From a phage: DNA of 64,000 nt. Shown in pieces: positions 1 to 64,000 of the stretch. A model generated the notes under the pieces. It was not told where the DNA came from. It searched no databases and saw nothing but the letters and a program-made list of their open reading frames with translations. Where the stretch lies: NCBI GenBank assembly GCA_018027755.1, contig GCA_018027755.1_4098.1, one strand, 5' to 3'. The first letter of the stretch is position 1. Every line of letters begins with the position of its first letter. Both the position numbers and the translations under genes were made by a program.

Positions 1-254
1 ATTTCAAAGATGGTACTATTCAATCTATCAGTACTGAATATGAATATCAATGGACTGAGTACTTCACTTATGGATCGCGTAATACATTGATGGCTTCACG
101 TAGTAAATTGGAAGAAGTACTGACTCGTATGAATGAACGCGAACGTCAATTTTATGACAAACCAGAAATGTGGAGTTCAACTTACATTGACCGTATTGAC
201 TATGTTATTATGACTCCAATCTTTGACACTGCTTACTATGATTCTTTGAAATAA
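1..254 (+). CDS. hypothetical protein, 3' portion (5' end outside window)
   Basis: Frame open from window edge to TAA at 252-254; co-oriented with downstream genes. Confidence 0.4.
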   Translation, partial: FKDGTIQSISTEYEYQWTEYFTYGSRNTLMASRSKLEEVLTRMNERERQFYDKPEMWSSTYIDRIDYVIMTPIFDTAYYDSLK

Positions 255-265
255 GGATAACTTAT

Positions 266-442
266 ATGAAACTACGTACTCGTAATCGACTGATGGATGC
301 ACTGTACCATGAACAGCTTTCACTGAATGAAGTGAAGCGACAGTTAATGTACACATATCTGTTACCCGCTCGCATTGCAAAACAACGTGCTAAAGAATTG
401 CTGAAAGAAGCAATCGAGTACTGGGAATCTGATTCGTACTAA
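266..442 (+). CDS. hypothetical small protein (58 aa)
   Basis: ATG 266 after AAGGA; below 60-aa track cutoff, read directly from sequence. Confidence 0.4.
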   Translation: MKLRTRNRLMDALYHEQLSLNEVKRQLMYTYLLPARIAKQRAKELLKEAIEYWESDSY

Positions 443-470
443 TTGTCACGTTAATTAAGTGAGGCGATAA

Positions 471-722
471 ATGAAAATTTTATTAGTTCTAATACTACTA
501 ATTGTTTTACCATTTACGTTAGTATCCCCTGAACTTGCATGGAATGTGTTTGTGTACTTACTATGTACTATTGTAGTAAATGGTATCTTGTTCTTAGTTC
601 TATTCATAAATGGAATAGGACACGGTGGAGGATGGACCAGTACTGCTGATATTGTACATAAAACCACTATGTCTTTATTTGTAGTGTGGAATTTATTCTG
701 GACTTGGTTTGTGTTCTTCTAA
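471..722 (+). CDS. small hydrophobic membrane protein (83 aa)
   Basis: ORF track; translation almost entirely L/I/V/F-rich. Confidence 0.5.
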   Translation: MKILLVLILLIVLPFTLVSPELAWNVFVYLLCTIVVNGILFLVLFINGIGHGGGWTSTADIVHKTTMSLFVVWNLFWTWFVFF

Positions 723-733
723 TTAAAAAAAAT

Positions 734-1105
734 ATGAATATAGATTTGAAAGGTGCAACACGAACTGTCATACTCATTGGGGAATATGCTATCAAGATTC
801 CAACCTTTAAAAGTTGGAAGCTATTCTTAACAGGGATGATAGCTAACCTCAATGAACGTTCGTGGATGCAGTACTCCAAGCGTAGTAATAGTGGTATCTG
901 CCCTACGTTGTGGTCATCATGTACTGGACTAGTAACTGTACAGAAACGTTGTAAGCCAGTACAACATAGGGGTTTATTTTGGGTGGAGTTGTGTGCTTTA
1001 GCATTGGATTCAGAGTTAAGTACTGACTTCTTCTATTCAGATGCGAAGCCAGAAAACTTTGGGTATCTGTGTGGTAAGTTGGTTAAACTTGATTATGGAG
1101 ATTAA
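734..1105 (+). CDS. small protein-kinase-like protein
   Basis: Motifs IGEYAIKIP, DAKPENFG, KLVKLDYG resemble kinase Lys/catalytic-loop/DFG-like segments; start placed at internal ATG of track ORF 686..1105. Confidence 0.4.
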   Translation: MNIDLKGATRTVILIGEYAIKIPTFKSWKLFLTGMIANLNERSWMQYSKRSNSGICPTLWSSCTGLVTVQKRCKPVQHRGLFWVELCALALDSELSTDFFYSDAKPENFGYLCGKLVKLDYGD

Positions 1106-1106
1106 T

Positions 1107-1376
1107 ATGTACGCACTGTATAATAAAGAAAAGAAACGATTTGCTAAGGTTGAAATTTCGATTGATACATTTGACATGTTGGAGTACTGTATTGTAACGG
1201 ACTTATATGCTAACTTGTATTACGTTCTTGATGACGTATCAGTACTGCAACGATTGCTTGAGAATTCCAAAAGTCAATGCCAGGACATCCATGATGGTTC
1301 ATCTTATGAAACACCTGAGTGTCCCCACGGGCAACTCGATGGGTATGAGATTGTTAAGTTGGGAATTGTTGAGTAA
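1107..1376 (+). CDS. hypothetical protein
   Basis: ATG 1107 overlaps upstream stop (TAATATG); track ORF 1041..1376 trimmed. Confidence 0.5.
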   Translation: MYALYNKEKKRFAKVEISIDTFDMLEYCIVTDLYANLYYVLDDVSVLQRLLENSKSQCQDIHDGSSYETPECPHGQLDGYEIVKLGIVE

Positions 1377-1382
1377 AAGGTA

Positions 1383-1411
1383 TTGACACCGTACTCATTT
1401 AACTGTATTAT
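1383..1411 (+). promoter_or_regulatory. sigma70-like promoter (TTGACA-N17-TATTAT, TG-extended)
   Basis: -35 at 1383-1388, -10 at 1406-1411, 30 bp upstream of ATG 1442. Confidence 0.5.
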
Positions 1412-1441
1412 GTATGTACACCAACTAATGAGGAATCGGAA

Positions 1442-1801
1442 ATGGCATCTTTATCTGAAATCACTGAACTGAATCCACTGGTAATTAGTACTGTTCAACG
1501 CACCAAGACGTTTTACTTCCGTCCTGCTGATGGATGGAAACGTGGAATGAATGGTGACTATCGAGTACTGGAAGATTCGCTCATCGAGCGTATCAACTCT
1601 GAACTACAGAAGTATGAAGGTGTTAAAGTTGTCCGTTCAACTTCTCGTTATTTTGAGTACTACATTGAGTCTTCAACTGTAAATGAAAACTCATCATTCT
1701 CGGTGGATAACACTGATATTCTTCGCAATGCAGTTGGTTTGCTATGCAACATTGCAGAAGAAATGGGATTAACTATCACCACAATGAGTGAGTTAGAATA
1801 G
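1442..1801 (+). CDS. hypothetical protein (119 aa)
   Basis: ORF track; GAGGAA RBS; promoter upstream. Confidence 0.6.
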   Translation: MASLSEITELNPLVISTVQRTKTFYFRPADGWKRGMNGDYRVLEDSLIERINSELQKYEGVKVVRSTSRYFEYYIESSTVNENSSFSVDNTDILRNAVGLLCNIAEEMGLTITTMSELE

Positions 1802-6464: not shown

Positions 6465-6539
6465 AAATCCCTCCTTTATTCATTATACTATATTTAATAC
6501 AAAAAAAAAGAAAAGCCAGTATCAAGTACTGGCCCTATA
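6465..6539 (-). promoter_or_regulatory. array cassette boundary (terminator hairpin + TATAAT + AAGGAGG)
   Basis: Minus-strand reading: GCCAGTA..TACTGGC hairpin, T-run, TATAGTATAATGAATAAAGGAGG, ATG. Confidence 0.55.
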
Positions 6540-42521: not shown

Positions 42522-42528
42522 AAAAGAT

Positions 42529-48328: not shown

Positions 48329-48486
48329 TGGTTTTCATTAACATATCTGACCAACTCGATACTAAACTAGAAGTCGAGCAGAGTGAGGGAGGGATGTTGT
48401 ACTTTCTTGGAACTTCTCATCAGAATTTTTATATCCATGAACACATAGTTGCACTCACAAATCTAATAAGGGATAAATGTAAATGA
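48328..48486 (+). CDS. small protein, tandem family B (52 aa)
   Basis: Below track cutoff; FLGTSHQNFY motif. Confidence 0.5.
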   Translation: MVFINISDQLDTKLEVEQSEGGMLYFLGTSHQNFYIHEHIVALTNLIRDKCK

Positions 48487-50073: not shown

Positions 50074-50314
50074 AGATGAATATACCGAGCGTATGACAAA
50101 AATTACGCACAAACGTAATACAATCTATCACAACCCAGAAATCCAACACAGTAAGAAAATGATTATGATGCGTGAGTTAAAGATGGGTGTATTCTTAGGA
50201 ACAAACTATCAAGATACAGAAGTAAATCGCTTAATCGCGGAGTTACTACTGGAAATCAGAGGTAAGCTGTACTTTCATCAAATGACCCAACCACTGAGGT
50301 GTACTGATCGATGA
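50051..50314 (+). CDS. small protein, tandem family B
   Basis: Track ORF trimmed to MQMINLSKDEYTER; paralog of 49610..49828. Confidence 0.6.
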   Translation: MQMINLSKDEYTERMTKITHKRNTIYHNPEIQHSKKMIMMRELKMGVFLGTNYQDTEVNRLIAELLLEIRGKLYFHQMTQPLRCTDR

Positions 50315-50562
50315 ATGCGATGAATATTGTGAATAACATCAGATTAGCAGAAAGATTTGATAGAATTGGGGAAGCACTGAGAAGATACGATAAAGAATAT
50401 GGTCATTTGAGCTTTTCTATAGAAAAGAGATATGAACTTGAAGCAGAGTTTAAAATGCAGAGTCTCTTAGGCACACAGTATCAAAACCAATATATTCAAA
50501 CTTGGATTGATTGTTTAATCCAGACAATTTACGTAAGAAACATTAAATGCAAAATGAAATGA
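50311..50562 (+). CDS. small protein, tandem family B
   Basis: ORF track; LGTQYQNQYI. Confidence 0.6.
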   Translation: MNAMNIVNNIRLAERFDRIGEALRRYDKEYGHLSFSIEKRYELEAEFKMQSLLGTQYQNQYIQTWIDCLIQTIYVRNIKCKMK

Positions 50563-50807
50563 TATACTTAACCTATAATGAATACGTCGAGAGATTAGTT
50601 CGTGCCAAGAGATATACCAATAAACGTCCAATTGACCTAAACCAAACCCCAGCAGAAAGGAGTGCAGAAGTATTATTCCAATCACTACCATATCTTCTGG
50701 GAACTGATAGACAAGAGGAATATGTTGCACGTATGATTAGATATCTTAAAATCACTATTAAGGAAAAAGTAAATGCAAATGCAAATGAAATACTTAACAG
50801 ACGATGA
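50547..50807 (+). CDS. small protein, tandem family B
   Basis: ORF track; LGTDRQEEYV; paralog of next gene. Confidence 0.6.
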   Translation: MQNEMIYLTYNEYVERLVRAKRYTNKRPIDLNQTPAERSAEVLFQSLPYLLGTDRQEEYVARMIRYLKITIKEKVNANANEILNRR

Positions 50808-51030
50808 GTTAAAAGAACGACTAATTAAATCCAGAAAACTTACAAATCAACTTCCAAACGACACAAACAAGTCACATGCCGAAAGGAGTGCAGAAGTTTT
50901 ATACATTCAACTCATGTACTTTCTTGGAACTGACAGACAAGAGTATTACATTGAAAGTATGCTTCGATATCTTAAATTCTCTATAAAGGAAAAGATACAT
51001 GCTCAAGAATTTAAAAATCCTAACAGTTAA
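50773..51030 (+). CDS. small protein, tandem family B
   Basis: ORF track; LGTDRQEYYI. Confidence 0.6.
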   Translation: MQMQMKYLTDDELKERLIKSRKLTNQLPNDTNKSHAERSAEVLYIQLMYFLGTDRQEYYIESMLRYLKFSIKEKIHAQEFKNPNS

Positions 51031-51256
51031 TGAATATCATACGATTGTAATGAAAACTAATAGTGAAATTTCTAAAAAATCAAACCCAAAGTACATACTG
51101 GAACACACATTCGAAGAACGCCAATTAGCTCTAGTTGAAGCAAAACTTCTTGCACTCCTAGGAACAAACTATCAGGAAGAATACATCAGAAAACTAATAT
51201 ACCTTTTAACTAAACACATCAGGAAAAGAAAAAAGCATGAAGCACTTGACAGATGA
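50999..51256 (+). CDS. small protein, tandem family B
   Basis: ORF track; LGTNYQEEYI. Confidence 0.65.
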   Translation: MLKNLKILTVNEYHTIVMKTNSEISKKSNPKYILEHTFEERQLALVEAKLLALLGTNYQEEYIRKLIYLLTKHIRKRKKHEALDR

Positions 51257-51467
51257 TGAACATGGGCTTATAGTAATGGATGTAATCAACATCGAATACA
51301 AAAAGTTGATACGCTACCGTTGTTATGAAGATAAGCAACTCGTTCTAGCAGAACAGAAGTTGTTTCGACTCTTAAACACAAACTTCCAAGCACAATACGA
51401 AGAATCGTATATGTACCTTTTGGCGAGGAAAGCAAAAAGAGATTATGAAAATTTTAAGCAAAGGTGA
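51237..51467 (+). CDS. small protein, tandem family B
   Basis: ORF track; LNTNFQAQY. Confidence 0.6.
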   Translation: MKHLTDDEHGLIVMDVINIEYKKLIRYRCYEDKQLVLAEQKLFRLLNTNFQAQYEESYMYLLARKAKRDYENFKQR

Positions 51468-51660
51468 TTCAGTAATATTACTTATAGAGAGTTCAAGTAA
51501 ATTCTTAAACATAACACTGTCTGATATAGATGAAGATGACAAAGAAGTACTGAGAGCAGATTTAAGAGTACTGTTACATATCGGAACAAACCTACAAGAA
51601 GAATATGTAGAGTGCTACATCAATGAACTTAAAGAATTAGTACTGAGAAAATGCAAATGA
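51445..51660 (+). CDS. small protein, tandem family B
   Basis: ORF track; IGTNLQEEYV. Confidence 0.6.
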   Translation: MKILSKGDSVILLIESSSKFLNITLSDIDEDDKEVLRADLRVLLHIGTNLQEEYVECYINELKELVLRKCK

Positions 51661-51878
51661 AAATCATTACCGATGCAGAATACCTAACAATCATAAATGG
51701 ACTGTTTTTGAAGCTCTTCGTCATTAACACATCAGATATACCAGATATGGATAAAATTATTAAGAGAAATGAAGTCTATGTTCTAGCTACCCTTGGAACG
51801 AACTATCAAGAACACGACATTAAAGATTATATTAATACACTTAAACGAGCGATTGAACTAAAATGCCAAAACCACTAG
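51651..51878 (+). CDS. small protein, tandem family B
   Basis: ORF track; LGTNYQEHDI. Confidence 0.65.
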   Translation: MQMKIITDAEYLTIINGLFLKLFVINTSDIPDMDKIIKRNEVYVLATLGTNYQEHDIKDYINTLKRAIELKCQNH

Positions 51879-52078
51879 GAACAGCAGAATACATTGAACT
51901 AATGGGATTACACTTCTCATCCTTTCAGAAACTTATGCGAGAATCAAAGAATGATTTAGAATATACCATCAGAGGTTCCGATTTAAGAATGCTTCTCACC
52001 CTAGACACAGATTCCCAAGAGCGATTTGTCAATGAGCATATTAGAGCACTTTTAATGGAAATTCAAAGTAAACTATGA
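51863..52078 (+). CDS. small protein, tandem family B
   Basis: ORF track; LDTDSQERFV. Confidence 0.55.
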   Translation: MPKPLGTAEYIELMGLHFSSFQKLMRESKNDLEYTIRGSDLRMLLTLDTDSQERFVNEHIRALLMEIQSKL

Positions 52079-52290
52079 AGGTAATATCAAATCAAGAGTA
52101 CTTGGCACTATTCAGGAAGAATAATCACAAATATATGGCACTTGATTCAAGAACTGATATAAGTGAACTTGAAAAAAATCTTTTGCGTTCAGATATGATA
52201 GTACTGACACTCTTAGGAACACAGCATCAAGAGAGAACTGTTAATTCACACATAGAAATACTTAAGAAGCTTATACAGGAAAAGTTATGA
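52075..52290 (+). CDS. small protein, tandem family B
   Basis: ORF track; LGTQHQERTV. Confidence 0.6.
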   Translation: MKVISNQEYLALFRKNNHKYMALDSRTDISELEKNLLRSDMIVLTLLGTQHQERTVNSHIEILKKLIQEKL

Positions 52291-52508
52291 GAATCATAAC
52301 ACAACAAGATATTCTTAAGTTCACAAGGGTTCATGCATCTGAATTTGATGCTATATTATCAAAAAGTTACAACAACCCTTATACACAAGATGTACACTAC
52401 AATGAATTATGGGTGTATATACTTTTAGGTACAGATCATCAAGAGCAAGCAGTACAGAAGTATTTGTTAGCTTTACGTGATGCTACTGCTAATGGAGTAC
52501 GTGTTTAA
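52287..52508 (+). CDS. small protein, tandem family B
   Basis: ORF track; LGTDHQEQAV. Confidence 0.6.
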   Translation: MRIITQQDILKFTRVHASEFDAILSKSYNNPYTQDVHYNELWVYILLGTDHQEQAVQKYLLALRDATANGVRV

Positions 52509-52509
52509 T

Positions 52510-52752
52510 ATGAAAGTACTGACAGAACTAGAAATGTATCATAGATTTAATAAGTACTATCATTTACTTAAGCCTATACAGAGGATTAAATGTCCATTTG
52601 AAGAGAAACAGGTTTTAATCTATGAGCACAAGTTCTTTGTATCATTAGGTACAGATCAACAAGAGTACTATTTGACGTTGTACTTGATTACATTAATAGA
52701 TTTAATTTACTATAAAACCAAACAAGCTAATAAAGAGAAATATGAAAACTAA
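52510..52752 (+). CDS. small protein, tandem family B
   Basis: Track ORF trimmed to MKVLTELEMY; LGTDQQEYYL. Confidence 0.6.
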   Translation: MKVLTELEMYHRFNKYYHLLKPIQRIKCPFEEKQVLIYEHKFFVSLGTDQQEYYLTLYLITLIDLIYYKTKQANKEKYEN

Positions 52753-53086
52753 TATACAACTCAAGGTATATAAATCATTTGAACATACATATATCAAAAG
52801 TAGTCTATGTAGAGATGTAATGGATTACAAGGGTAAGCCATTCACAATTACTTATGATTCTTATGTTGATGATTTATATATATCATTTGTTAATTACGAA
52901 AATAAAATATACAAGCACGTTGATATTAAAGATTTAAGTACTTTATCTGAAGAGGAATACTTTCAGGAATCATTAGTATGGGATTTAGAGTTTCCTATGC
53001 CATTAGTACATAAGATGATAGTACTAATGAAAGAATCTAAACAGGAGCCTAATGGTGATTATGAAGAACACACAGTTGAGTATTAA
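52742..53086 (+). CDS. tandem family C protein (acidic-aromatic-FQ-x-SL motif)
   Basis: ORF track; SEEEYFQESLVWD. Confidence 0.6.
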   Translation: MKTNIQLKVYKSFEHTYIKSSLCRDVMDYKGKPFTITYDSYVDDLYISFVNYENKIYKHVDIKDLSTLSEEEYFQESLVWDLEFPMPLVHKMIVLMKESKQEPNGDYEEHTVEY

Positions 53087-53456
53087 AAGTACTGATAATA
53101 TTAAGAGTTATACAAGCTCAAGTACTGTGACAATCGAAGTGAATTCTATTAATGCTGGTAATGCAGTAGATAAGTTCTTTATTGCTCAAGGGTACAGGAA
53201 AGATATTCATCAATATTGTTCAGTATATGGGGAGTACAATAGTACTGAAGATATAATTTATTGGTCAACACATCAAGATTATCTAACTAAAATTGGAGTC
53301 CCAGATGTTAGTACTTTATCTGAAGAAGAATACTTTCAGTACAGCTTAATATGTGATGTACCTATACCTTTAGGGTTAATCAAGGGTATACAGGAAGAGG
53401 TTCATAAGCTTAAATCCATGAGTAAAGGTACTTTCATTAGAACAGTGCAATACTAG
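53052..53456 (+). CDS. tandem family C protein
   Basis: ORF track; SEEEYFQYSLICD; paralog of previous. Confidence 0.6.
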   Translation: MVIMKNTQLSIKSTDNIKSYTSSSTVTIEVNSINAGNAVDKFFIAQGYRKDIHQYCSVYGEYNSTEDIIYWSTHQDYLTKIGVPDVSTLSEEEYFQYSLICDVPIPLGLIKGIQEEVHKLKSMSKGTFIRTVQY

Positions 53457-53457
53457 C

Positions 53458-53486
53458 TTGACAGTACTTTTCATTACTGATATAGT
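53458..53486 (+). promoter_or_regulatory. sigma70-like promoter (TTGACA-N17-TATAGT)
   Basis: -35 53458-53463, -10 53481-53486, before ATG 53516. Confidence 0.5.
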
Positions 53487-53515
53487 ACACTAACGTTAAT
53501 CATAGGGTAAAAATT

Positions 53516-53761
53516 ATGTTAAATTTTTTAAATTTCCTTATCGTTTTGTGTATTGTTCTTGGGATTGCACCATTTGTATTGTATTTCATGGATTCAGATG
53601 AAATGCAGAAGATGAATTGCACAAGGACAGGACAGAGTAGAGAAGAGACGATTCTTATGCCTGTTACGGTTATTGTTAACAACATGCCCATTACAAACAT
53701 GGTCCCTACCCTAACGACAACGTACCAGTACTCTTGTGCTGACGGAGAGAGGTGGAGATGA
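53516..53761 (+). CDS. small membrane-anchored protein (81 aa)
   Basis: ORF track; hydrophobic N-terminal helix; own promoter. Confidence 0.55.
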   Translation: MLNFLNFLIVLCIVLGIAPFVLYFMDSDEMQKMNCTRTGQSREETILMPVTVIVNNMPITNMVPTLTTTYQYSCADGERWR

Positions 53762-54078
53762 AATTTAATATAGCAAAAACATCGAGTATATGTATTTTTG
53801 GTTATGCAGAAGAGTTAGGTGATATTGACATTCTTTTGTACAAAAAGGATGGTGTTATGCATTTCAAGTACCAGGATGAAGAGGCAGACAATTATCTTTT
53901 ACCTAATTTAGTACAAATGCAGGAAGAGGAATTATTCCAGTACAGCTTAGTATACGACATTGATATTTGCACGATGCCAGTACTAATTAGTATTCAAAAA
54001 GTGATGCTCGATATGTATGATAAGCTAATACAAGGTACATCAGGGAGAATCATTGAAATCGATATACAAGACAATTAA
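53752..54078 (+). CDS. tandem family C protein
   Basis: ORF track; EEELFQYSLVYD. Confidence 0.6.
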   Translation: MEMKFNIAKTSSICIFGYAEELGDIDILLYKKDGVMHFKYQDEEADNYLLPNLVQMQEEELFQYSLVYDIDICTMPVLISIQKVMLDMYDKLIQGTSGRIIEIDIQDN

Positions 54079-54271
54079 TCAAGAATGGAAGACCCAAAAG
54101 TACAGGGAATTCAACAGGAATTTTACAAAAGATGCATTGAATTTAAAAACAACAGAGTTTGATATGTTTATTTTTCTTGGAACACGTTCACAAGAACAAT
54201 TTGTTCATTATTATATAAATTCGTTGCGAACGGAGATAGTATGCAAAACACAGGGTATTATAAAAAGGTAA
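54053..54271 (+). CDS. small protein, family B-like (embedded in family C array)
   Basis: ORF track; FLGTRSQEQFV motif. Confidence 0.5.
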   Translation: MKSIYKTINQEWKTQKYREFNRNFTKDALNLKTTEFDMFIFLGTRSQEQFVHYYINSLRTEIVCKTQGIIKR

Positions 54272-54507
54272 ACCAATATTTGTACGCTACAAAGTACAGG
54301 GATTTTTGTTTAAAGGGTGGTGATGAAGATTTTTCTTTGCGATTATCAGAATTTAATCTGTTATTTTATCTTGGTACAAAAGAACAAGAAGAAATGGCAC
54401 AGAAATTTATCAAGCACCTTTTACAAAAAATTAATATGCAAATTTTGATGCTTAAGTTACAGAATGAGATAAATGAATATGAATCCAGAAATAGTTCAGG
54501 ATCTTAA
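54241..54507 (+). CDS. small protein, family B-like
   Basis: ORF track; YLGTKEQEEMA motif. Confidence 0.5.
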   Translation: MQNTGYYKKVNQYLYATKYRDFCLKGGDEDFSLRLSEFNLLFYLGTKEQEEMAQKFIKHLLQKINMQILMLKLQNEINEYESRNSSGS

Positions 54508-54865
54508 AAAAGTAATATTTCTTTTGAATACCAGAAGTGAATTGTATACAGAGTTAAAAGAGATTAATGCATTTTATCAGAATTTTGTAATCCAAGAGTT
54601 CAGTGATTTAATTACAGATGCATTATTTGAATTCTCGGAGAAATACAAAGGAACAGAGTTCAGTGTTAAGAATGTTATTCGTCCAAGTACAAGGAAAATT
54701 ATATTATCACATTTTACATTTGACAATAAAGATTTATTCAGTCATAATCCAAGTACAGCTTTATATTTTATTCCTGATTCAGACAAAAATCATCCTATTC
54801 ATTACGGATGGATTTTGTCATATATAGTACAAGGAAAGGAGTATCCTATTAAATGGAAAGATTAG
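54473..54865 (+). CDS. hypothetical protein (130 aa)
   Basis: ORF track; no family motif. Confidence 0.5.
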   Translation: MNMNPEIVQDLKKVIFLLNTRSELYTELKEINAFYQNFVIQEFSDLITDALFEFSEKYKGTEFSVKNVIRPSTRKIILSHFTFDNKDLFSHNPSTALYFIPDSDKNHPIHYGWILSYIVQGKEYPIKWKD

Positions 54866-55013
54866 GGCGATTAGATTATTACACAATTAATACAAATTAT
54901 TTGTTGAGTAATATAAAATCCGATTACAAAATATGGATAAAGAACAGAGATAGCATGTGTTATGAATTTTATTTAGATTATGCTATCAAACGATTTTTAA
55001 GAGAAGAACATTA

Positions 55014-55217
55014 ATGCAAAAGATTAATACGATAACATTAAATGCATTACAGGATTCATTATTAGATAGTATTAAGATGTATTACAATATACATTTGAAG
55101 GGTGGTATTGATAATTACGATTATTATTTGAGTTTAATTACATTTGAGCACCTTTCAGTACAGGACAGGATTATACATCCTACAAATCCTAGGTATCCAT
55201 CGATAGGTAAATTATGA
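55014..55217 (+). CDS. hypothetical protein (67 aa)
   Basis: ORF track. Confidence 0.45.
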   Translation: MQKINTITLNALQDSLLDSIKMYYNIHLKGGIDNYDYYLSLITFEHLSVQDRIIHPTNPRYPSIGKL

Positions 55218-55762
55218 ATGAGATAGATTTATTAGCACACAAGATAAGTACAATAATGCTTATCCTCAATAACAACCATCCTATATCGCAGATAGATGGA
55301 ATCCTGAGTCAGAGGACAGGTGGTAGTTTATATTTGTCCATAAACGCAGATATCGCAAGGAAATACATTGATATTGATGTTGAAATCGAATATGATACAA
55401 CGGGGATTGTTGATGTAGGAGCATTAATCAGTTCAAATCCAGTATCAGCATCCCCATTGACCAAAGATGTTAGTACAGGATTCGAAGGATATTTGTGGTA
55501 CAATACCAATGATGATTATTTTATATATCAGCATTCCAATACAAATTATGATGAAGACAAATTTCAGTTCATAGACCCTTATGATGAAGCTGAAGTATTT
55601 CAAAAATCATTAATCACAAAACCGCATGAGATGATGTATCTAATGTTATTCAGTACAATGCATTTGAATCCATTAATTAAAGGTTTAAAATTTTATATTC
55701 AATTAAATTTAGTCCATGTAGTTTATGATTTATTAATGCAAGGATATAGTTATGAAGTATAA
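55214..55762 (+). CDS. tandem family C protein
   Basis: ORF track; DEAEVFQKSLITKP. Confidence 0.55.
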   Translation: MNEIDLLAHKISTIMLILNNNHPISQIDGILSQRTGGSLYLSINADIARKYIDIDVEIEYDTTGIVDVGALISSNPVSASPLTKDVSTGFEGYLWYNTNDDYFIYQHSNTNYDEDKFQFIDPYDEAEVFQKSLITKPHEMMYLMLFSTMHLNPLIKGLKFYIQLNLVHVVYDLLMQGYSYEV

Positions 55763-56063
55763 AATGATGTATACCCCAGATATGATTTATGTTGAATTAG
55801 AAGATGATGACGATGGGTGGAATTTGATTTATTCAAGAAGTTCAGGTTGGTACATGGCACATTTAAATGATTCGATAGTTACAGATTATTTTGTAGATTT
55901 CAATACATTATCCGATGAAGAATTGTTCCAACAGCAATTAGTGATTGACACGGGTGGTTATGATGTCTTATTATTAAAAAAGATACAAAAAGCTGTTATT
56001 GATTTTAAGCCCATGATATGGCAAAGGAAATATTATGACCTCGAAGTACCATACCAGCAATGA
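55752..56063 (+). CDS. tandem family C protein
   Basis: ORF track; SDEELFQQQLVID. Confidence 0.6.
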   Translation: MKYKMMYTPDMIYVELEDDDDGWNLIYSRSSGWYMAHLNDSIVTDYFVDFNTLSDEELFQQQLVIDTGGYDVLLLKKIQKAVIDFKPMIWQRKYYDLEVPYQQ

Positions 56064-56601
56064 AATTCAGTACACCTACGCTAATGCAATCCTTATGGGA
56101 CAAAAGTTAGCTTGTATTGTTGCAGCCTTATATAATGCCCAGAAAGATTACAAGCGTCATATCCACAAATGTATTGGTATTATTCCATCGAAGTACAATA
56201 CATATATTGCGTGCACGAGTCATTTTGATAAACGATTCAATACACCTGATACCCCAAATGCCAGTAGTGTTATTGGTCTTTTGGATTTCGCACCTGGTGC
56301 TGTTATTGGAAAGAATGATTTAGAGTACACATGGTATAATAAAAATGCCCCGTTAGTAATGGGAAAATATGATACAGAAACGAATAAAACAATAGAGTAC
56401 AATACATATAAATCAGAGGAAGAATTTTTCCAAGGTTCATTGCTTGTACCAGTGCGTTTGTTGTTTTATAATGTCCTTATTAGTACAGTACACAATAGTC
56501 CATTACACAAGAATCACAAAATTAATTTCAATTTTTGTGCTTATGCGATTGATGGTGTGTATGAGTGTTTAATGGAGGTATTGAGTTATGAAGCTGAATA
56601 A
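56035..56601 (+). CDS. tandem family C protein
   Basis: ORF track; SEEEFFQGSLLV. Confidence 0.6.
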   Translation: MTSKYHTSNEIQYTYANAILMGQKLACIVAALYNAQKDYKRHIHKCIGIIPSKYNTYIACTSHFDKRFNTPDTPNASSVIGLLDFAPGAVIGKNDLEYTWYNKNAPLVMGKYDTETNKTIEYNTYKSEEEFFQGSLLVPVRLLFYNVLISTVHNSPLHKNHKINFNFCAYAIDGVYECLMEVLSYEAE

Positions 56602-56929
56602 TACATTTGATATTAATAAGTTAAGAGAATGGTTTTATAGTATTGAAATTGAAGCCATCCCGTATCATAGATATGAACAATATAATTTAACCAGTATTGA
56701 TATCCGTGAGTTGTACGCGTATTATCAAAGTGCATTAGAGATGCATAAGTTATTTTTGAGTACAGATTTTGTTATAAATTACAATTTTGAGGAATTTAAT
56801 AATTATAATTTAGTACAGAAATATGTAGTAGCAAAGTACATGTACCTTCAAGGAATTACAAGTAATTTGGAATTCAATACAGTCCTGGCTTTAGTTGAGG
56901 TAATTTTATGCAGTACATGTATGATTTAG
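56588..56929 (+). CDS. hypothetical protein (113 aa)
   Basis: ORF track; no clear family motif. Confidence 0.5.
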   Translation: MKLNNTFDINKLREWFYSIEIEAIPYHRYEQYNLTSIDIRELYAYYQSALEMHKLFLSTDFVINYNFEEFNNYNLVQKYVVAKYMYLQGITSNLEFNTVLALVEVILCSTCMI

Positions 56930-57414
56930 AGTTTAGTTTAGATGCTGCCTTTAAATTTGTTCACAAGATAGAAACAATATACAGTACATTATGTGCAATA
57001 CAATCAGTATCATCTGAGTTTGATGTTGGTGAAAAATATCAGGTATGGAATAATACATTTCTAAACAAAGAACGTTGCTCTACGGGGTTTAATATTTTAA
57101 CATTTAATCCCAGCAATTGTTACCCAGAGAAGCATGAACGTTATCCGAATGACGACATGTGGTTTGATTACACAAAAGATGGTGATATGTCATCCCTTGT
57201 AGTTCCTGATGATTTTAATGCCGAAGATTTAACGAAAGAGTGGTGGTTTCAACAGAATTTAGTACACGATGATATTGATTTATTTTTTTATGTAGTATTT
57301 AAAATGCTTTACCACAACAATATATTAAAAGATAGTGTGTTTTTTTCATGTCTATATATTGATGATTTGTACAATGAAATCCAAATCAACATGCCCAGAA
57401 CGCCTGTATCGTAA
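56908..57414 (+). CDS. tandem family C protein
   Basis: ORF track; KEWWFQQNLVHDD. Confidence 0.55.
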   Translation: MQYMYDLEFSLDAAFKFVHKIETIYSTLCAIQSVSSEFDVGEKYQVWNNTFLNKERCSTGFNILTFNPSNCYPEKHERYPNDDMWFDYTKDGDMSSLVVPDDFNAEDLTKEWWFQQNLVHDDIDLFFYVVFKMLYHNNILKDSVFFSCLYIDDLYNEIQINMPRTPVS

Positions 57415-57439
57415 GATATGGGCTTTTTTCGTTTTGGTA

Positions 57440-57468
57440 TTGACAAAGAAGTGCAAAGCTGTTATCAT
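57440..57468 (+). promoter_or_regulatory. sigma70-like promoter (TTGACA-N17-TATCAT)
   Basis: -35 57440-57445, -10 57463-57468; T-run just upstream; AAAGGAG RBS downstream. Confidence 0.45.
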
Positions 57469-57496
57469 GTGTAATCATTTTAAAGGAGAACATATA

Positions 57497-58009
57497 GTGA
57501 GTTTCATAATCCCTAGTACATACGAAGATGCATCAAGTGCAGTTCATAAGATTCATTATATTTTTAATTTAATTATTAGATCTGCAAAAATTAAAATGTA
57601 TGCACCTCTTGTGACAAATAATCGAAATGAAGAAATTTTTATTAGCACAGACAAAATTATTTTTCCATATTTCAATGAAGATATATTGTGGTTCATACAT
57701 TTAGCTGCATTACAAAAATATAAAATGTCAATTCGTAATAATTTGGATATACCGTTATATCATCCTGATATTGGAGAGGATGAATATTTTCAGTACAGTA
57801 CAGTACACCGCCATGAAGATATCTTTGTTGCTATGCTTATTGCTAAATTGAACACCGTTGATTTGGAGTACCACAAATACAATAATAAATCATGTAAGAT
57901 CATAATCCCTGCATTCATAGCTCTTTATGATTATGTGGTGCATAACAAAAAAGATGATACATATGCTTTCAATGAAGAGTATTTGAATTTTTTTAAGGAG
58001 AACATATGA
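57497..58009 (+). CDS. tandem family C protein
   Basis: Track ORF 57335..58009 trimmed to GTG 57497 after AAAGGAG; EDEYFQYSTVH. Confidence 0.5.
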   Translation: MSFIIPSTYEDASSAVHKIHYIFNLIIRSAKIKMYAPLVTNNRNEEIFISTDKIIFPYFNEDILWFIHLAALQKYKMSIRNNLDIPLYHPDIGEDEYFQYSTVHRHEDIFVAMLIAKLNTVDLEYHKYNNKSCKIIIPAFIALYDYVVHNKKDDTYAFNEEYLNFFKENI

Positions 58010-58533
58010 GCAGTGAAGTGCAGAAATCAATGACATTCAATGAAATTGGTGCATTTAAAGATAAGATCATTGATTGCATTGAATACATGATTTGTAGTAA
58101 TATCGAAAGTATCGAGATATTTAACAAGACAAATCGCTCTTACCATATGATGTACATTGCAAACAATAATGGTATCATTCCATTTATTTCGGATAGTACA
58201 ATATGGTACGCATGTGATACGAAAAAAACCACAATAGGTTTACATTCATTTGAGACACATTATGATCTAATTATTCCTGAACATTGTATGCAAGAAGAAG
58301 AATATTTTCAAATGCAATGTATACATTCACCATTAGTGTTGTTTAGTTTATATATTATACCTTATATCACCAAATGTGTTCATGAGAATAAAGCTCCGTG
58401 GAATCATGAATTTGTATCGTTGAAGTTATTGTATAATGTATTAGTAGAATATTATGATTACAGGCACAATGGTACAATCAGTGATGTATGGGATTTTGAA
58501 TCGCTAAGGGTGAAAACATACACAGGTGAATGA
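58006..58533 (+). CDS. tandem family C protein
   Basis: ORF track; EEEYFQMQCIH. Confidence 0.6.
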   Translation: MSSEVQKSMTFNEIGAFKDKIIDCIEYMICSNIESIEIFNKTNRSYHMMYIANNNGIIPFISDSTIWYACDTKKTTIGLHSFETHYDLIIPEHCMQEEEYFQMQCIHSPLVLFSLYIIPYITKCVHENKAPWNHEFVSLKLLYNVLVEYYDYRHNGTISDVWDFESLRVKTYTGE

Positions 58534-59149
58534 TATGACCAGAATTAAAATGTATGATTTGATGCAGTACAGTAAAATTGCCATTCCAGTGCTTAATAAA
58601 GTGCTGGATGCATTCATTGCCAAATACCCTGAGAATTCAGTGTTATGTATTCCATTTAGTGTTCCAGATAAAGATGATATATTCCAAGTGAATGTCAGTA
58701 CACGTGGTATTACATTGCAGCAGAAATATATGGATACGGAATATTATGGAATAAAGTTGGATTCAGTACAGGGTTCTAAATCAGCCTATGATTTTTTTGT
58801 TCCTAATAACATCGAGTCATGGGAAACAAACATTTCAAAGAAAGATGAAAATGATGTTCCTATTAGTGGTGTGTTCAACAATAAAGTTTTTTATTATTAC
58901 GAAACCGACAAATTCCCTGAAGAGTTATATTACAATTCAGAAATGAATGAAGATGTAGATGCATTCATGTTTCAATTATCTTTAGTACATGATATCATTG
59001 ATGTTCAAGAGTTAAGAGCAGAAATCAATTTAGCTAAAGAGTTATCGGACATGCTGCCACCGTTTAGTATGCTTTTTTGTGAAGGAGGTTATTTTTCAAA
59101 AGAAGTGTTTGAACATTTCGTAGATGTTGTAAAAGGGTTGGATATATAG
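58526..59149 (+). CDS. tandem family C protein
   Basis: ORF track; DAFMFQLSLVHD. Confidence 0.55.
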   Translation: MNDMTRIKMYDLMQYSKIAIPVLNKVLDAFIAKYPENSVLCIPFSVPDKDDIFQVNVSTRGITLQQKYMDTEYYGIKLDSVQGSKSAYDFFVPNNIESWETNISKKDENDVPISGVFNNKVFYYYETDKFPEELYYNSEMNEDVDAFMFQLSLVHDIIDVQELRAEINLAKELSDMLPPFSMLFCEGGYFSKEVFEHFVDVVKGLDI

Positions 59150-59150
59150 T

Positions 59151-59345
59151 ATGCTTATAATTGATATTAAACAAAAATACCGTAAGTTTGATTGGTTCAC
59201 CGATAGTTTCCAGCTTGAATTATTACATATGAATATCAGTGAAACATTATGTGCAGAAACACAAGATGAATTTGATGATAGAGTGATGAACATAGTAATG
59301 CTTTCTTGCTTTAAACATTTTGGTTATTTTTTCGGACAGAATTGA
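59151..59345 (+). CDS. hypothetical protein (64 aa)
   Basis: ORF track. Confidence 0.45.
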   Translation: MLIIDIKQKYRKFDWFTDSFQLELLHMNISETLCAETQDEFDDRVMNIVMLSCFKHFGYFFGQN

Positions 59346-59353
59346 GGTAAAAA

Positions 59354-59872
59354 ATGCATCAACACAAGCATCATTCATATGATTTTGCAATTAACATTAT
59401 GAAGTTTATTCGAGCGTTGGAGGATGGGAAGCTTAGTCATAAGTACACCAAAGTAGGTGACAATTGGTTCAGAAATGATGATGATGAGTTCAGAAGTCAT
59501 AAGATTGTTTACAGCAATAATTACAGTGCCAATTACCTACAAGATGTAGTGATGTGTTTTGAATACGTGTTGCAGTTCAGGGGTTCAATCCAAGATGAGT
59601 TGATGGAGAACATGTACATCCGATACCTTCCAATGCTCAAAGATGAAAATGTATTATTAAATTCAATATACCAACGAGTTCGTGAAATTGAGTGCAGGGA
59701 TATATTAGATACAGAAGAATCGTATTTCCAGCAATCCCTGATTTATGCACCTGATTTATTACAGGTACATAATTTGTTTAATACATTACGTCAGAACATC
59801 AGTACAGACATATTTTTGTCATTATCGGATTATGATACATTTGTCAAAGATTTAGAGGAAATAGGTTTATGA
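59354..59872 (+). CDS. tandem family C protein
   Basis: ORF track; EESYFQQSLIYAPD. Confidence 0.6.
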   Translation: MHQHKHHSYDFAINIMKFIRALEDGKLSHKYTKVGDNWFRNDDDEFRSHKIVYSNNYSANYLQDVVMCFEYVLQFRGSIQDELMENMYIRYLPMLKDENVLLNSIYQRVREIECRDILDTEESYFQQSLIYAPDLLQVHNLFNTLRQNISTDIFLSLSDYDTFVKDLEEIGL

Positions 59873-60213
59873 GTCGATTTTCGGTTTATATAGTAAACGT
59901 CAGTAAAGATGGTAGTTTAATTGAATTTGATGTAGTTGATAACAATGATAATTCATATGGTATTAAGGTACAGGACAATAATGTACAGTTCAGTACAAGG
60001 ACAAATTTTGAGAATCCAGTCCAAGTTCCGAATTTCATAGAAGATGAAGCTGCACGATTCCAATACGAAACGGCCTTTGATAATATGCATATGCATATTA
60101 TTATGCAACAAAGTTTAGTTCAATTGCTTCAGGTATTCAGACAAAATATATATGTACATGAAGTGTCGATTAATGGCATTCAAAGTTCCGTTTTGTTCGG
60201 TACAAATATGTAA
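59869..60213 (+). CDS. tandem family C-like protein
   Basis: ORF track; degenerate motif (ARFQYETAF..QQSLVQL). Confidence 0.5.
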   Translation: MSRFSVYIVNVSKDGSLIEFDVVDNNDNSYGIKVQDNNVQFSTRTNFENPVQVPNFIEDEAARFQYETAFDNMHMHIIMQQSLVQLLQVFRQNIYVHEVSINGIQSSVLFGTNM

Positions 60214-61384: not shown

Positions 61385-61581
61385 AGACGTTTCATTTTGA
61401 CAGGCCGCAGGGGGGGTCAAAAAAATTTCCGCTGAAAAACATGCTAAGGTATATGTTTAATATAAAGTTTTATATTGTGTTTTTCAGAGTACAGTTCATG
61501 TTTCCTGAAACAAAAAATACCCCGCCGCCGAACGTTCTCCTTATATTGGAGTTTACCTTATTAATTATAGTAGAGATTAAG

Positions 61582-61959
61582 ATGGAAATAAAATATAATG
61601 AATTTTGTGCAAGGACATGGATGTACACTGGTGAGTTAGTTACGCACTCTAACTTATACAAGGGTGATTTAAACTACGCTAGGGACAAGATTTTAAAGTA
61701 CTGGAATGCTGACTTTTATTTGATGGATTTTAGTACTGGGTTTAGGGGTAAAGCAACCGAGATGTTGGACTATACAGTACTTGATGATGCTGCACTGTTT
61801 CAGGAGGCATTAGTATTTGATAAGAAGTACATCTGTACATTAGAAGAGATGATTGAATTACAGCGTAGTATTAAATGTATTCACAGGGAATGTATAGATA
61901 TCTGGTGCAGTACTGGTGAAGATAATTTTTGTAATCATTTCAATCTAGGGGAAGTGTGA
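61582..61959 (+). CDS. tandem family C protein
   Basis: Track ORF 61441..61959 trimmed to MEIKYNEF; DAALFQEALVFDKKY. Confidence 0.5.
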   Translation: MEIKYNEFCARTWMYTGELVTHSNLYKGDLNYARDKILKYWNADFYLMDFSTGFRGKATEMLDYTVLDDAALFQEALVFDKKYICTLEEMIELQRSIKCIHRECIDIWCSTGEDNFCNHFNLGEV

Positions 61960-62315
61960 TGGAATTTGATTTTTTAATATCAGTACATACTTTCAAGCAC
62001 AGTTATCAGTACTTTTGTAATTTAAACAAAGGTGATTTAATGCACAGTGCAAATGAGTATATTCATTACACTCAGGGTAAATTTACATTCATTGATTACA
62101 GTTCATTACAGTATCCACACCAAGATATGCCGGACTATACATTAATGGATACCGCAGAACTATTCCAAGAATCATTAGTATTTGATAAGAAGTACTTGTG
62201 TACATTTGAAGAAGTTATTGCAATACAAAATGAAATGAAAGAGTATGCTGCTTTGCATAAACCCAATGCAAGTATTAATCAAGAATACAAATTCAATTTA
62301 GGAATTCAAGAATGA
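61956..62315 (+). CDS. tandem family C protein
   Basis: ORF track; TAELFQESLVFDKKY; close paralog of neighbours. Confidence 0.65.
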   Translation: MMEFDFLISVHTFKHSYQYFCNLNKGDLMHSANEYIHYTQGKFTFIDYSSLQYPHQDMPDYTLMDTAELFQESLVFDKKYLCTFEEVIAIQNEMKEYAALHKPNASINQEYKFNLGIQE

Positions 62316-62671
62316 CATATGATTATTCTATGTACTATTATAAGTTACCTAAAGGATGGGACTTGTGCTGTAATCTTATTAAGGGCGACTCGGAACATGA
62401 GTTGAGTTTATATATGCATTACAAAGATTCTTGTTTTAAATTTATTCATGTATCACATGACGACTATGACTATGAATCTGAGAGTCTTATAGATTATACA
62501 GTACTGGACGATGGTGAACTATTTCAGGCTGCATTAGTGTTTGATAAGAATAAGTACTCCTGTACATTTGAAGAAATGGTTTCTTTGCAAAATGAAATGA
62601 AGAGATTTGAAAAAGAAAACGTATTTAATCCATCCCCATCAAGAACGAATAATTATTATTTCAATATATGA
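62312..62671 (+). CDS. tandem family C protein
   Basis: ORF track; DGELFQAALVFDKNKY. Confidence 0.65.
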   Translation: MTYDYSMYYYKLPKGWDLCCNLIKGDSEHELSLYMHYKDSCFKFIHVSHDDYDYESESLIDYTVLDDGELFQAALVFDKNKYSCTFEEMVSLQNEMKRFEKENVFNPSPSRTNNYYFNI

Positions 62672-62680
62672 GATTATAAA

Positions 62681-63175
62681 ATGACATTACAGAGTTCATT
62701 GGAAAAAGCAAAGAAGATTCATGAGTACATGAATATGGCAAAAGAAGGTTCAGTTTACGGTGTTTTCAAAGACACAAGTACTCAATATTATGTGCCAGAT
62801 AACCTCCTTTATAATGACTGCTCAGATACAGAAACGTGCGTACTGGATACAGAAACGTGCATACTAGATACCGACCCTAATGATTATGAATGTTTCATTG
62901 ATATGCATAATGAGTACATGGTCTATATTAATGATGCAGATATTACCATATACAGTACTGACTGCGATTCCGATGACATTATAATTCCGAGTGAAGTACT
63001 AGAAGGTCAGTGGGATAGTGAAGAGTATTACTTCCAACAAAGTACTGTATACGATGATGAAGTACTTGAAGTATTAGTTATTATGTGGTACTTTAAAAGT
63101 ATTGGTTCTGGGAACTTCTATTTCGATTACAGATACGTAACGAAAACTGTAGATAACGGTATTAACAGGGGTTGA
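62681..63175 (+). CDS. tandem family C protein
   Basis: ORF track; SEEYYFQQSTVYDDEVLEVLVIMWYF. Confidence 0.65.
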   Translation: MTLQSSLEKAKKIHEYMNMAKEGSVYGVFKDTSTQYYVPDNLLYNDCSDTETCVLDTETCILDTDPNDYECFIDMHNEYMVYINDADITIYSTDCDSDDIIIPSEVLEGQWDSEEYYFQQSTVYDDEVLEVLVIMWYFKSIGSGNFYFDYRYVTKTVDNGINRG

Positions 63176-63176
63176 A

Positions 63177-63647
63177 ATGAGTTTAGAAAGAGCATTAGAG
63201 ATTGCGAAGTTAATTGATTTATGCAGCAAAGAAATTGTAGCAAATTGTCTTAATGGATATCTATTCAAGGAAGGTAAATCATATTGTCGAATGAGATACG
63301 ATGACAGTAGTGAGTACATTCACATGTATGAAGAAAACTTAGATTCTTCTGAAACAACACTCAATGGGTGTGATGTTAATTTGGAAGATAATTACATGTA
63401 CTTCTGTCGTGATGCTGATATTTTAATACAAGATTCTGACATTATATCTGGTGCAGCAGAGAAACATCTTCCGTATTCAGTACTGGATAATGACTGGGGA
63501 AGTGAAGAGTACTACTTCCAGCAGAATACTATCTACGAGGAAGATGTACTTGACAAGCTTGTCATTCTGTGGTACTTTAATAATACAGATTGTCCTAGCT
63601 TCTATTTGGACTTGGATCTACTACGAGTTATTAAAGAGGATATATGA
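63177..63647 (+). CDS. tandem family C protein
   Basis: ORF track; SEEYYFQQNTIYEEDVLDKLVILWYF. Confidence 0.65.
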   Translation: MSLERALEIAKLIDLCSKEIVANCLNGYLFKEGKSYCRMRYDDSSEYIHMYEENLDSSETTLNGCDVNLEDNYMYFCRDADILIQDSDIISGAAEKHLPYSVLDNDWGSEEYYFQQNTIYEEDVLDKLVILWYFNNTDCPSFYLDLDLLRVIKEDI

Positions 63648-64000
63648 GTTTAGCAAGTGCACTTGAACTAGCACACAGAATACATCACTTCCACGATAAC
63701 ATAAAAAGTGGGTTCTATGGTGATAAAGTAAGTGCATTTGGTGATGAGTATTATCTATCAGGTATAAAGACATACTCTGATGATATTTTACTTATGGGAC
63801 AGGATAAAGACAATACTATACAGTACTCTTCATGTAGTCAATATACTAATTTTTTTGTATATATTCCAGGTACTAAGATTACTTTTGACACAACAAATAC
63901 ACCTGTTGACTTCGGGGTACTTGATGGCCCGTGGGGTACTGAAGAGTATTACTTCCAACAGAGTCTCATTTTTAACCAAGAAATTCTTGATTCCTTGGTT
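63644..64000 (+). CDS. tandem family C protein, 5' portion (3' end outside window)
   Basis: ATGA overlap at 63644; TEEYYFQQSLIFNQEILDSLV; open to window edge. Confidence 0.55.
   Translation, partial: MSLASALELAHRIHHFHDNIKSGFYGDKVSAFGDEYYLSGIKTYSDDILLMGQDKDNTIQYSSCSQYTNFFVYIPGTKITFDTTNTPVDFGVLDGPWGTEEYYFQQSLIFNQEILDSLV

Follow-up and report, generated by a model that had tools for sequence, protein, structure and literature searches.

AGTACT, a strongly over-represented palindrome of Rak2-like jumbo coliphages, and its possible reader

The palindromic hexamer AGTACT occurs 280 times in a 64,000-nucleotide stretch of phage DNA (GenBank assembly GCA_018027755.1, contig GCA_018027755.1_4098.1; the whole stretch is here called the window), compared with 21.2±4.8 copies (maximum 33) in 100 dinucleotide-preserving shuffles. 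The motif is symmetric and graded, is under selection, is dense throughout the genome of the relative 121Q and takes up fixed slots in promoters, a combination which argues that AGTACT is a selected target of a duplex-DNA reader with two-fold symmetry. The reading that we favour, tentatively, is that AGTACT forms the core of a site of ~12 bp with two-fold symmetry, about TTnCAGTACTGnAA, and that selection for such a reader keeps it dense. By megablast, each third of the window is matched by Rak2-like jumbo coliphages of the genus Asteriusvirus, with 88-97% identity in mosaic blocks to 121Q, PBECO4, G17, CRJP21, phAPEC6 and others.

Phages classically purge short palindromes from their DNA, so the 8- to 20-fold enrichment of one of them here breaks the rule. 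The excess of AGTACT is not described in the papers on RaK2, CBB, phAPEC6, Sharanji and fEgEco12, in a 2026 review of jumbo phages, or in the literature found by full-text searches for AGTACT or its extended palindromes together with phages.

Excess, symmetry and maintenance of AGTACT

An initial annotation of the window, made by eye, had called AGTACT strongly over-represented. The excess is real and is larger than was stated there: base composition (order 0) predicts 21.6 copies and an order-2 Markov model 49.4, which gives an observed/expected ratio (O/E) of 5.7 for the latter. The local counts of that annotation (about 10 in 1..1800 and about 8 in 52500..53460) were slightly low, the exact numbers being 12 and 9. 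No other hexamer of the window is as abundant as AGTACT, and the top-ranking octamer is CAGTACTG, with 63 copies. The signal is nested, with 647 copies of GTAC against 209 expected, 408 of AGTAC against 72, and 280 of AGTACT against 22.

Sequence preference continues symmetrically on both sides of the hexamer. C is found at position -1 in 46% of the sites and G at +1 in 49%, and further out T at -3 and -4 and A at +3 and +4 are each present in 43-48% of the window sites, giving the extended consensus T-T-n-C-AGTACT-G-n-A-A. Variants with one mismatch are enriched ~2-fold when the change is at an outer position of the hexamer and ~1-fold when it is at an inner position.

The window is 83% coding by our own open reading frame (ORF) calls. 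Density is 10 sites per kb in non-coding DNA (108 sites) and 3.2 per kb in coding DNA, where the called ORFs hold 172 sites, evenly distributed along gene length and divided 76/37/59 among the three frames; the occurrence in several frames had been noted previously. Shuffling of synonymous codons leaves 59.6±6.3 coding sites (maximum 83) and shuffling of codon order 24.1±5.2. The excess thus survives a codon-aware null, with an O/E well away from 1, and, since it exceeds both shuffles, codon choice and amino acid sequence have both been bent towards AGTACT. Paralogy does not explain the coding excess, because it is also seen in 47 single-copy core genes for replication and virion proteins, which carry 60 sites in 121Q (20.4±4.2 expected) and 92 in RaK2 (29.1±4.3 expected). 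The commonest reading frame of the motif in these core genes is AGT-ACT. The 121Q annotation includes a tRNA-Ser with the unusual anticodon ACT and a tRNA-Thr (TGT), at segment coordinates 25,464-25,555 and 27,896-27,969; the ACT anticodon directly matches the AGT codon, and tRNA-Thr(TGT) can be connected more tentatively with the ACT codon.

The same enrichment is found in the relatives from Klebsiella and Cronobacter, and is accompanied by a complete lack of the tetramer GCGC. The counts are as follows, with the expectations for AGTACT at order 0.

121Q, whole genome of 348.5 kb: AGTACT 903 (118 expected); GCGC 0 (291 expected)
RaK2 (Klebsiella), syntenic core region: AGTACT 114 (16.6 expected); GCGC 0
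GAP32 (Cronobacter), first 50 kb: AGTACT 253 (16.7 expected); GCGC 0
PA5oct (Pseudomonas, more distant): AGTACT 3 (13.7 expected); GCGC normal
T5: AGTACT 4 (16.3 expected); GCGC 43 (77 expected)
rV5: AGTACT 2 (14.5 expected); GCGC 58 (121 expected)
DCP80: AGTACT 3 (7.5 expected); GCGC 25 (37 expected)
E. coli K-12, 50 kb: AGTACT 3 (11.6 expected); GCGC 342 (215 expected)

AGTACT is avoided by ordinary coliphages and by E. coli, as would be predicted for a palindrome of the restriction type. Across 121Q, all 5-kb bins apart from two ‘deserts’ (155-160 and 165-170 kb) hold at least 5 sites against ~1.7 expected, and the excess also covers the structural and replication genes.

The initial annotation had set the excess against the usual avoidance of palindromes by phages, a contrast that sharpens when the other palindromes are counted. 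Of the 64 palindromic hexamers, 24 are completely absent from the 348.5 kb of 121Q, with 8-32 copies of each expected. The missing words include GGTACC, CTGCAG, CCATGG, GGATCC, GTCGAC and GAGCTC, while GAATTC, GATATC, CACGTG and GTGCAC are not avoided. GCGC is likewise absent from the window (63 expected). A nuclease specific for GCGC might account for this absence, whether the phage carries it to break down host DNA or it is common across the host range.

AGTACT sites are retained better than comparable words. Where the window aligns with 121Q (91% identity), 81.7% of the AGTACT sites have been preserved, compared with 69.5% for hexamers of the same composition, and this surplus holds in coding and non-coding DNA alike. 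Orthologues of 121Q and RaK2 (65% amino acid identity) contain 58 and 88 sites, respectively, of which 22 are at shared positions, so that 38% of the 121Q sites are conserved in position compared with 16% for controls. The sites are thus conserved above background yet are mostly lineage-specific, a pattern which indicates from sequence comparison that the density of AGTACT is actively maintained, through conservation together with a steady acquisition of new copies. What selection acts on would seem to be the density itself.

Promoter slots and distribution along the window

About half of the 108 non-coding sites (~50) lie in a few fixed slots of sigma-70-type promoters, and AGTACT is present once or more in 34 of the 46 promoter-like sequences of the window. 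The preferred offsets from the start of the -10 hexamer are -27 to -30 and -7/-8 in the window, 121Q, RaK2 and GAP32, with 19 window sites at -7 and -8. The upstream slot abuts and overlaps the -35 hexamer, in the form AAAAAGTACTTGCAA-N16-TATAAT; the junctions AGTACTTG and AGTACTTGCAA are found 29 and 7 times in the window. A second slot lies directly 5' of the -10 hexamer, as AGTACTGTATAAT (10 copies) or as AGTACTGGCATAAT, which supplies the TG of an extended -10, and the general form AGTACTG(N)YATAAT is present 16 times. A further slot, TTGACAGTACT (7 copies), overlaps the 3' end of the -35 hexamer. The suggestion in the initial annotation that the site precedes both promoter hexamers was therefore correct. 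In some promoters the -35 and -10 flanks are both occupied, with the sites 20 or 22 bp apart. The principal arrangements are:

27518..27550, plus strand: promoter type 1, with a site abutting and overlapping the -35 hexamer, AAAGTACTTGCAA-16 nt-TATAAT
30206..30238, plus strand: promoter type 3, AGTACTTGCAATTAGTTTTCAGTACTGTATAAT, with its two sites spaced 20 bp; the layout recurs at 30,992/31,012, 35,125/35,145 and 38,263/38,283
33314..33349, plus strand: variant with sites 22 bp apart, AGTACT-A-TTGACA-N9-AGTACT-GG-CATAAT, in which AGTACT provides the TG of an extended -10; it recurs at 33,608, 36,459 and 44,660
28735..28792, plus strand: an upstream 12-bp palindrome, TTCAGTACTGAA, 23 bp before the promoter-proximal AGTACT; the arrangement (23-24 bp) recurs at 35,689/35,712, 39,364/39,388 and 42,634/42,658

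The promoters annotated by the authors of the GAP32 genome have the same layout, AAA[AGTACT]TTGACA-N10-[AGTACT]TTATAAT, and the slots are thus conserved across three genera. Operators placed within promoters, UP elements and extended -10 sequences, as in T4, T5 and CBB, are similar in that they use fixed spots directly upstream of the -35 or -10 hexamers and A/T-rich, UP-like DNA, and also in that the early-gene region is located on the terminal repeat; RpoD-like promoters with an ‘UP-like element’ upstream have been described for CBB (PMC5259590). However, AGTACT matches neither the UP-element consensus nor the TGn consensus, its offsets vary by 1-3 bp, and most sites are elsewhere. Thus, AGTACT has the fixed position relative to the -35 and -10 hexamers that is expected of a sigma-70 promoter element but is not confined to promoters, since 172 of the 280 sites are in ORFs.

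The distribution of AGTACT along the window is very patchy, and in two deserts falls to about the chance level of ~0.33 per kb:

1-5.9 kb, plus strand: small genes; 4.4 AGTACT per kb
5.9-20.9 kb, minus strand: array of twelve RCC1-like paralogues; 3.1 per kb
20.9 kb to the window end, plus strand: small genes, divided by density as in the next lines
20.9-25.4 kb: 7.8 per kb
25100..27145: ORF-free hub spanning the boundary of the terminal repeat, with short degenerate tandem repeats; 19 AGTACT, 8 of them as TCAGTACTGA
25395..46773, plus strand: equivalent, by homology with G17, of the direct terminal repeat, rich in early promoters of the sigma-70 type, with AGTACT against the -35 and -10 hexamers of ~45 of them, and holding most of the non-coding AGTACT; 139 sites, 6.5 per kb, O/E 20
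46,774..52,300, plus strand: first desert; 5 sites, 0.9 per kb
52.3-53.5 kb: 8.3 per kb
53,501..60,200, plus strand: second desert; 2 sites, 0.3 per kb, the chance level
60.2-64 kb: 4.2 per kb

The initial annotation had judged the minus-strand array to be less enriched, and its 3.1 sites per kb is indeed below the 6.5-7.8 per kb of the region that follows. It had also picked out a 10-bp palindrome as typical of the hub; this word, TCAGTACTGA, has 16 copies in the window, so that the 8 within 25.1-27.15 kb are half of them.

The two ends of the G17 genome are identical (bases 1-20,668 and 350,150-370,817) and map to the window from 46,773 down to 25,395, which points to this span as a direct terminal repeat (DTR) that has been collapsed in the assembly. 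By homology with the G17 ends, 25,395 and 46,773 are the putative boundaries of a DTR of 21.4 kb. The main peak of AGTACT density coincides with this repeat. In a relative, fEgEco12, a DTR of 20,993 bp was confirmed by PhageTerm and restriction digests (PMC13070987). Since the boundary at 25,395 falls inside the ORF-free hub, the hub would lie at the physical terminus of the genome, and by analogy with T5 the terminal repeat is probably the first DNA to enter the cell.

The DTR also carries nine copies of Chi (GCTGGTGG; 25,983-45,404), some in ORFs and some intergenic, all on the same strand, with fewer than 0.1 expected. In 121Q, half of the 18 Chi copies lie within the equivalent stretch at 136-154 kb. 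This co-oriented cluster looks like protection of one genome end from RecBCD. The nine Chi copies of the DTR indicate that the phage does load its own DNA with words that are read by host machinery.

The first desert begins exactly where the DTR ends. It is a head-to-tail array of ~25 small paralogous genes (65-90 aa; 46,872-52,290; phrog_4148) with overlapping stop and start codons, and the genes of the second desert also show internal paralogy. Comparison of the desert ORFs with PHROGs and Pfam gave only families without an assigned function. Both deserts are present in 121Q, at 155.5-159.6 kb (4.1 kb) and 161.8-169.4 kb (7.6 kb).

Within the RCC1 array, AGTACT is part of the stems of the terminators between paralogues, as the initial annotation had recognized in describing the word as built into hairpins:

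6515..6533, minus strand: intrinsic-terminator hairpin between RCC1-like paralogues, GCCAGTA-tcaag-TACTGGC followed by a T-run on the minus strand; equivalent hairpins are at 7,945, 9,151, 10,414, 12,786, 13,597, 14,859, 16,092/16,100, 18,492 and 19,692

A second lineage and the nature of the reader

The same signature is found in a second group of phages. A scan of IMG/VR for ATTCAGTACTGAAT returned jumbo phages and, in addition, a cluster of 25-34-kb contigs in which AGTACT is enriched 10-19-fold and GCGC is absent. These belong to a temperate family with a lambda-type GpA terminase, a lambda-family portal and a fused protease-capsid protein. Relatives that encode a large serine recombinase are integrated as prophages of ~33 kb in Leclercia, Yersinia enterocolitica and Pantoea agglomerans. 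In these three prophages AGTACT is enriched 5-10-fold, GCGC is again missing and GC content is 0.33-0.44; on the Yersinia contig the signature switches sharply at the junction with host DNA, the flanking host DNA having a GC content of 0.51. The metagenomic and Leclercia branch has the same C(-1) and G(+1) flanks around AGTACT, and the palindromic hexamers that are missing from the family are almost the same ones as in 121Q. The prophages also have a 2-kb minus-strand stretch of cargo that is poor in AGTACT, resembling the deserts of the jumbo phages; their variable cargo region contains reverse transcriptase, DUF3800 and HNH genes. A signature that is AGTACT-rich, GCGC-free and low in GC could serve to flag such phages and prophages in metagenomes.

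The two groups seem to be otherwise unrelated. When 466 ORFs of the temperate family were compared by tblastn with the window, with 121Q and with parts of RaK2 and GAP32, no match had an E value below 0.017, the best of the weak ones being low-complexity, and no methyltransferase common to the two was revealed. The temperate family has no close relative among deposited phage genomes; the annotated phage nearest to it by terminase, DCP80 (40% identity), is without the signature.

Selection on the motif across three phage genera, and its recurrence in unrelated prophages of the same host order, point to a reader of phage DNA. Since the two families agree in the motif, in the lack of GCGC and in the list of missing palindromes, yet have no gene detectably in common, a reader on the host side is favoured. 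An Enterobacterales host factor, or a pressure common to the host range, would fit better than a jumbo-phage protein, and such use of a host reader would parallel the use of co-oriented host Chi in the terminal repeat. The initial annotation had proposed a sequence-specific DNA-binding, modifying or nicking activity as the reason for the excess. The part of this proposal that stands is that the sites are symmetric and selected; a reader, a modifying enzyme or a nickase did not emerge from the analysis, and binding, modification and nicking are indistinguishable from sequence alone. A purely phage-encoded activity is less likely than was assumed there, because the temperate family shares the motif without detectably sharing genes.

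The predicted reader, bound at AGTACT sites, would mark or coat the phage DNA, and its occupancy of sites at early promoters may modulate host RNA polymerase. A dimer bound at ~-38 or ~-17 would be placed to compete with, or to touch, the carboxy-terminal domain of the polymerase alpha subunit, sigma region 4 and sigma region 3, and could thus either hinder or help transcription from early promoters in the terminal repeat. The finding could in this way reveal a new host-phage interface, in genome marking, protection or early-transcription control. A more ambitious version, which we consider speculative and rather unlikely as it stands, is that AGTACT is a density-coded ‘phage-self’ signal for a conserved Enterobacterales DNA-binding or DNA-processing protein; at least two lineages would have loaded it independently to recruit or disarm host machinery, and in the jumbo phages the sites would double as early-promoter operators. 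Such a signal would resemble Chi, KOPS and uptake sequences, short words that are kept dense by selection because cellular machinery reads them. However, those words are asymmetric, orientation-dependent and abundant in the host, whereas AGTACT is symmetric and rare there.

Known E. coli proteins were considered as readers. The SlmA-binding site GTGAGTACTCAC, used in nucleoid occlusion (PMC3020112), is likewise a 12-bp palindrome with an AGTACT centre, and its protein is present in the host. In each half-site, SlmA needs G1, T2, A4 and G5, and position 3 must be a purine (PMC3020112), but the phage sites have C there and show no GT preference: GTnAGTACTnAC flanks are found at none of the 280 window sites and at 2 of the 903 sites in 121Q, and G is at -1 in only 9%. 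LexA boxes (CTG-N10-CAG) could be built from two CAGTACTG 18 bp apart, but pairs at this distance do not form a peak, numbering 0 in the window and 5 in 121Q. TrpR operators, whose consensus contains CTAG/ACTAGT (PMC2811016), are likewise rejected, since CTAG and ACTAGT are both depleted here (O/E 0.54 and 0.63).

Several observations weigh against a dedicated duplex-DNA reader. SlmA, LexA and TrpR, the E. coli proteins tested, do not match, and E. coli itself avoids AGTACT, so that a host regulon is not evident. Among 99 ORFs of the AGTACT-rich parts of the window, Pfam gave no DNA-binding domain, helix-turn-helix or other; the only matches were a DksA/TraR zinc finger, GNAT, a ParE-like domain, AAA_16 and domains of unknown function. 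The sites show no helical phasing: there is no 3-bp or ~10.5-bp periodicity (for pairs within 150 bp of each other, Rayleigh power does not exceed 2.8 at periods of 3, 9-12 and 21 bp). Closely spaced copies are not in surplus beyond the promoter pairs, and thus no cooperative arrays are indicated; together with the lack of periodicity, this argues against cooperative arrays, and also against RNA hairpins as the main driver. The deserts demonstrate that stretches of 6-7 kb can manage without the motif. Symmetric flanks would be expected equally from self-complementary RNA pairing or from a type II restriction-modification enzyme. Chance convergence of the two lineages is also possible, since just ~16 of the AT-rich palindromic hexamers lack stop codons in all frames.

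First among the alternatives to such a reader is an epigenetic target, in which a methyltransferase or other base modifier of the phage or the host marks AGTACT or its GTAC core, and selection favours many sites because the mark protects or regulates the DNA. The precedent is HIP1 (GCGATCGC), an iterated palindrome of cyanobacteria and some cyanophages that is linked to orphan methyltransferases (PMC4390886; PMC5861425). HIP1 is the closest known phenomenon: like AGTACT, it is in many-fold excess throughout the genome, occurs in all coding frames and in non-coding DNA, and is conserved above background while its sites turn over. It differs in being a GC-rich octamer of cyanobacteria, where AGTACT is an AT-rich hexamer of enterobacterial phages, and in its quasi-periodic spacing, which was not detected for AGTACT; in addition, HIP1 is a property of the host genome that the phages share, whereas AGTACT is avoided by the host genome. 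Nonetheless, E. coli and its phages could serve as a tractable model for the long-unsolved problem of HIP1-type iterated palindromes.

The epigenetic explanation gains from the presence of two methyltransferases in the clade, a 286-aa Dnmt3-like C5 enzyme and a Dam-family enzyme, and from the report that RaK2 DNA is cut only by methylation-insensitive enzymes (PMC3622015). The initial annotation had recommended a search for a methyltransferase, a nicking enzyme or a helix-turn-helix protein; neither of the two methyltransferases fits AGTACT. The C5 enzyme is rejected as the AGTACT modifier because it is Dnmt3-like and the phage methylation reported for RaK2 (PMC3622015) is at CpG, which AGTACT does not contain; the second enzyme is of the Dam family. 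A cognate methyltransferase of the kind associated with HIP1 is therefore not evident, and there is no type II restriction-modification (ScaI-type) methyltransferase or endonuclease gene in the window or among the annotated genes of 121Q. The DNA of fEgEco12 was cut as predicted by ten enzymes (PMC13070987), ScaI being neither among them nor among the enzymes of the published RaK2 digests. The jumbo phages and the temperate family have no methyltransferase in common, and the ~2-fold enrichment of outer-position variants fits a graded binding site better than the all-or-none recognition of an enzyme. An epigenetic role for AGTACT is thus doubtful, though it deserves serious attention.

A second alternative is that AGTACT is a ‘permitted palindrome’, a word that restriction avoidance happens to spare and that is reused for terminator stems, operators and promoter flanks with no dedicated reader. 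This is in keeping with the 24 palindromic hexamers missing from 121Q and the nearly identical set missing from the temperate family, and with the use of AGTACT in the terminator stems of the RCC1 array and in the hub palindromes. The word is also, on direct reading, free of stop codons in any frame of either strand. However, other stop-free AT-rich palindromes, such as GAATTC, GATATC and GTATAC, have an O/E of ~1, and avoidance of AGTACT by other coliphages and E. coli means that it is not a generally safe word. Reuse in stems and flanks also leaves the 172 evenly spread coding sites and the 3-fold excess in core genes unexplained, and there is no surplus of closely paired copies. We therefore regard this explanation as distinctly unlikely.

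A role at the RNA level is more improbable still. AGUACU is self-complementary and might give AU-rich mRNAs a structure that resists RNase E or Rho, or else an RNA-binding factor might attach to it or cleave it. A DNA palindrome is present in the mRNA whichever strand is transcribed, almost the whole genome is transcribed and the symmetric flanks lengthen the self-complementarity, all of which would suit such a role. However, density is three times greater in non-coding than in coding DNA, and many sites lie 5' of a -10 hexamer and are not transcribed from that promoter. There is also no surplus of copies within hairpin distance and no Rfam match.

Least probable is a non-adaptive origin, either in a mutational or repair bias towards AGTACT of the very-short-patch kind or in inflation by duplicated promoters and paralogues: ~50 of the 108 non-coding sites are in repeated promoter cassettes, paralogue arrays fill the window, and blocks that have expanded or arrived recently (the deserts and the cargo of the prophages) are without the motif as if it accumulated slowly, but the excess extends to single-copy core genes, conservation is above background, a host repair bias should act on the host genome, where the word is depleted, and no repair gene common to the two phage families was detected. 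Vsr-type repair is specifically rejected by the deamination neighbours AGTATT and AATACT, which are not depleted (O/E 1.18 and 0.95 in 121Q, 1.73 and 1.15 in the window).

Other features of the hub and terminal repeat

No Rfam family and no tRNA was found in the hub, and thus no structured RNA. Its interior, at ~26,110-26,720, contains degenerate tandem GGATGGCT units near 26,228-26,259 as well as ACGGCTAAACGGCTAGAT-like units, and four copies of TTTTGGGCGTA. The tandem repeats and TTTTGGGCGTA could be terminus, packaging or origin signals.

Most early promoters (for example at 27,550-27,600) are followed by a conserved leader containing GTTTTACATC, then by a short G/C hairpin of the GGGGAnnnnTTCCCC type and a ribosome-binding site, an arrangement which suggests a shared 5'-UTR (5' untranslated region) element.

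By megablast, the part of the window from 20,001 to 45,000 matches 228 phage records, among them Phapecoctavirus, Justusliebigvirus and 13 Campylobacter phages, so that a short segment of it must be common to phages far outside the Rak2-like group.

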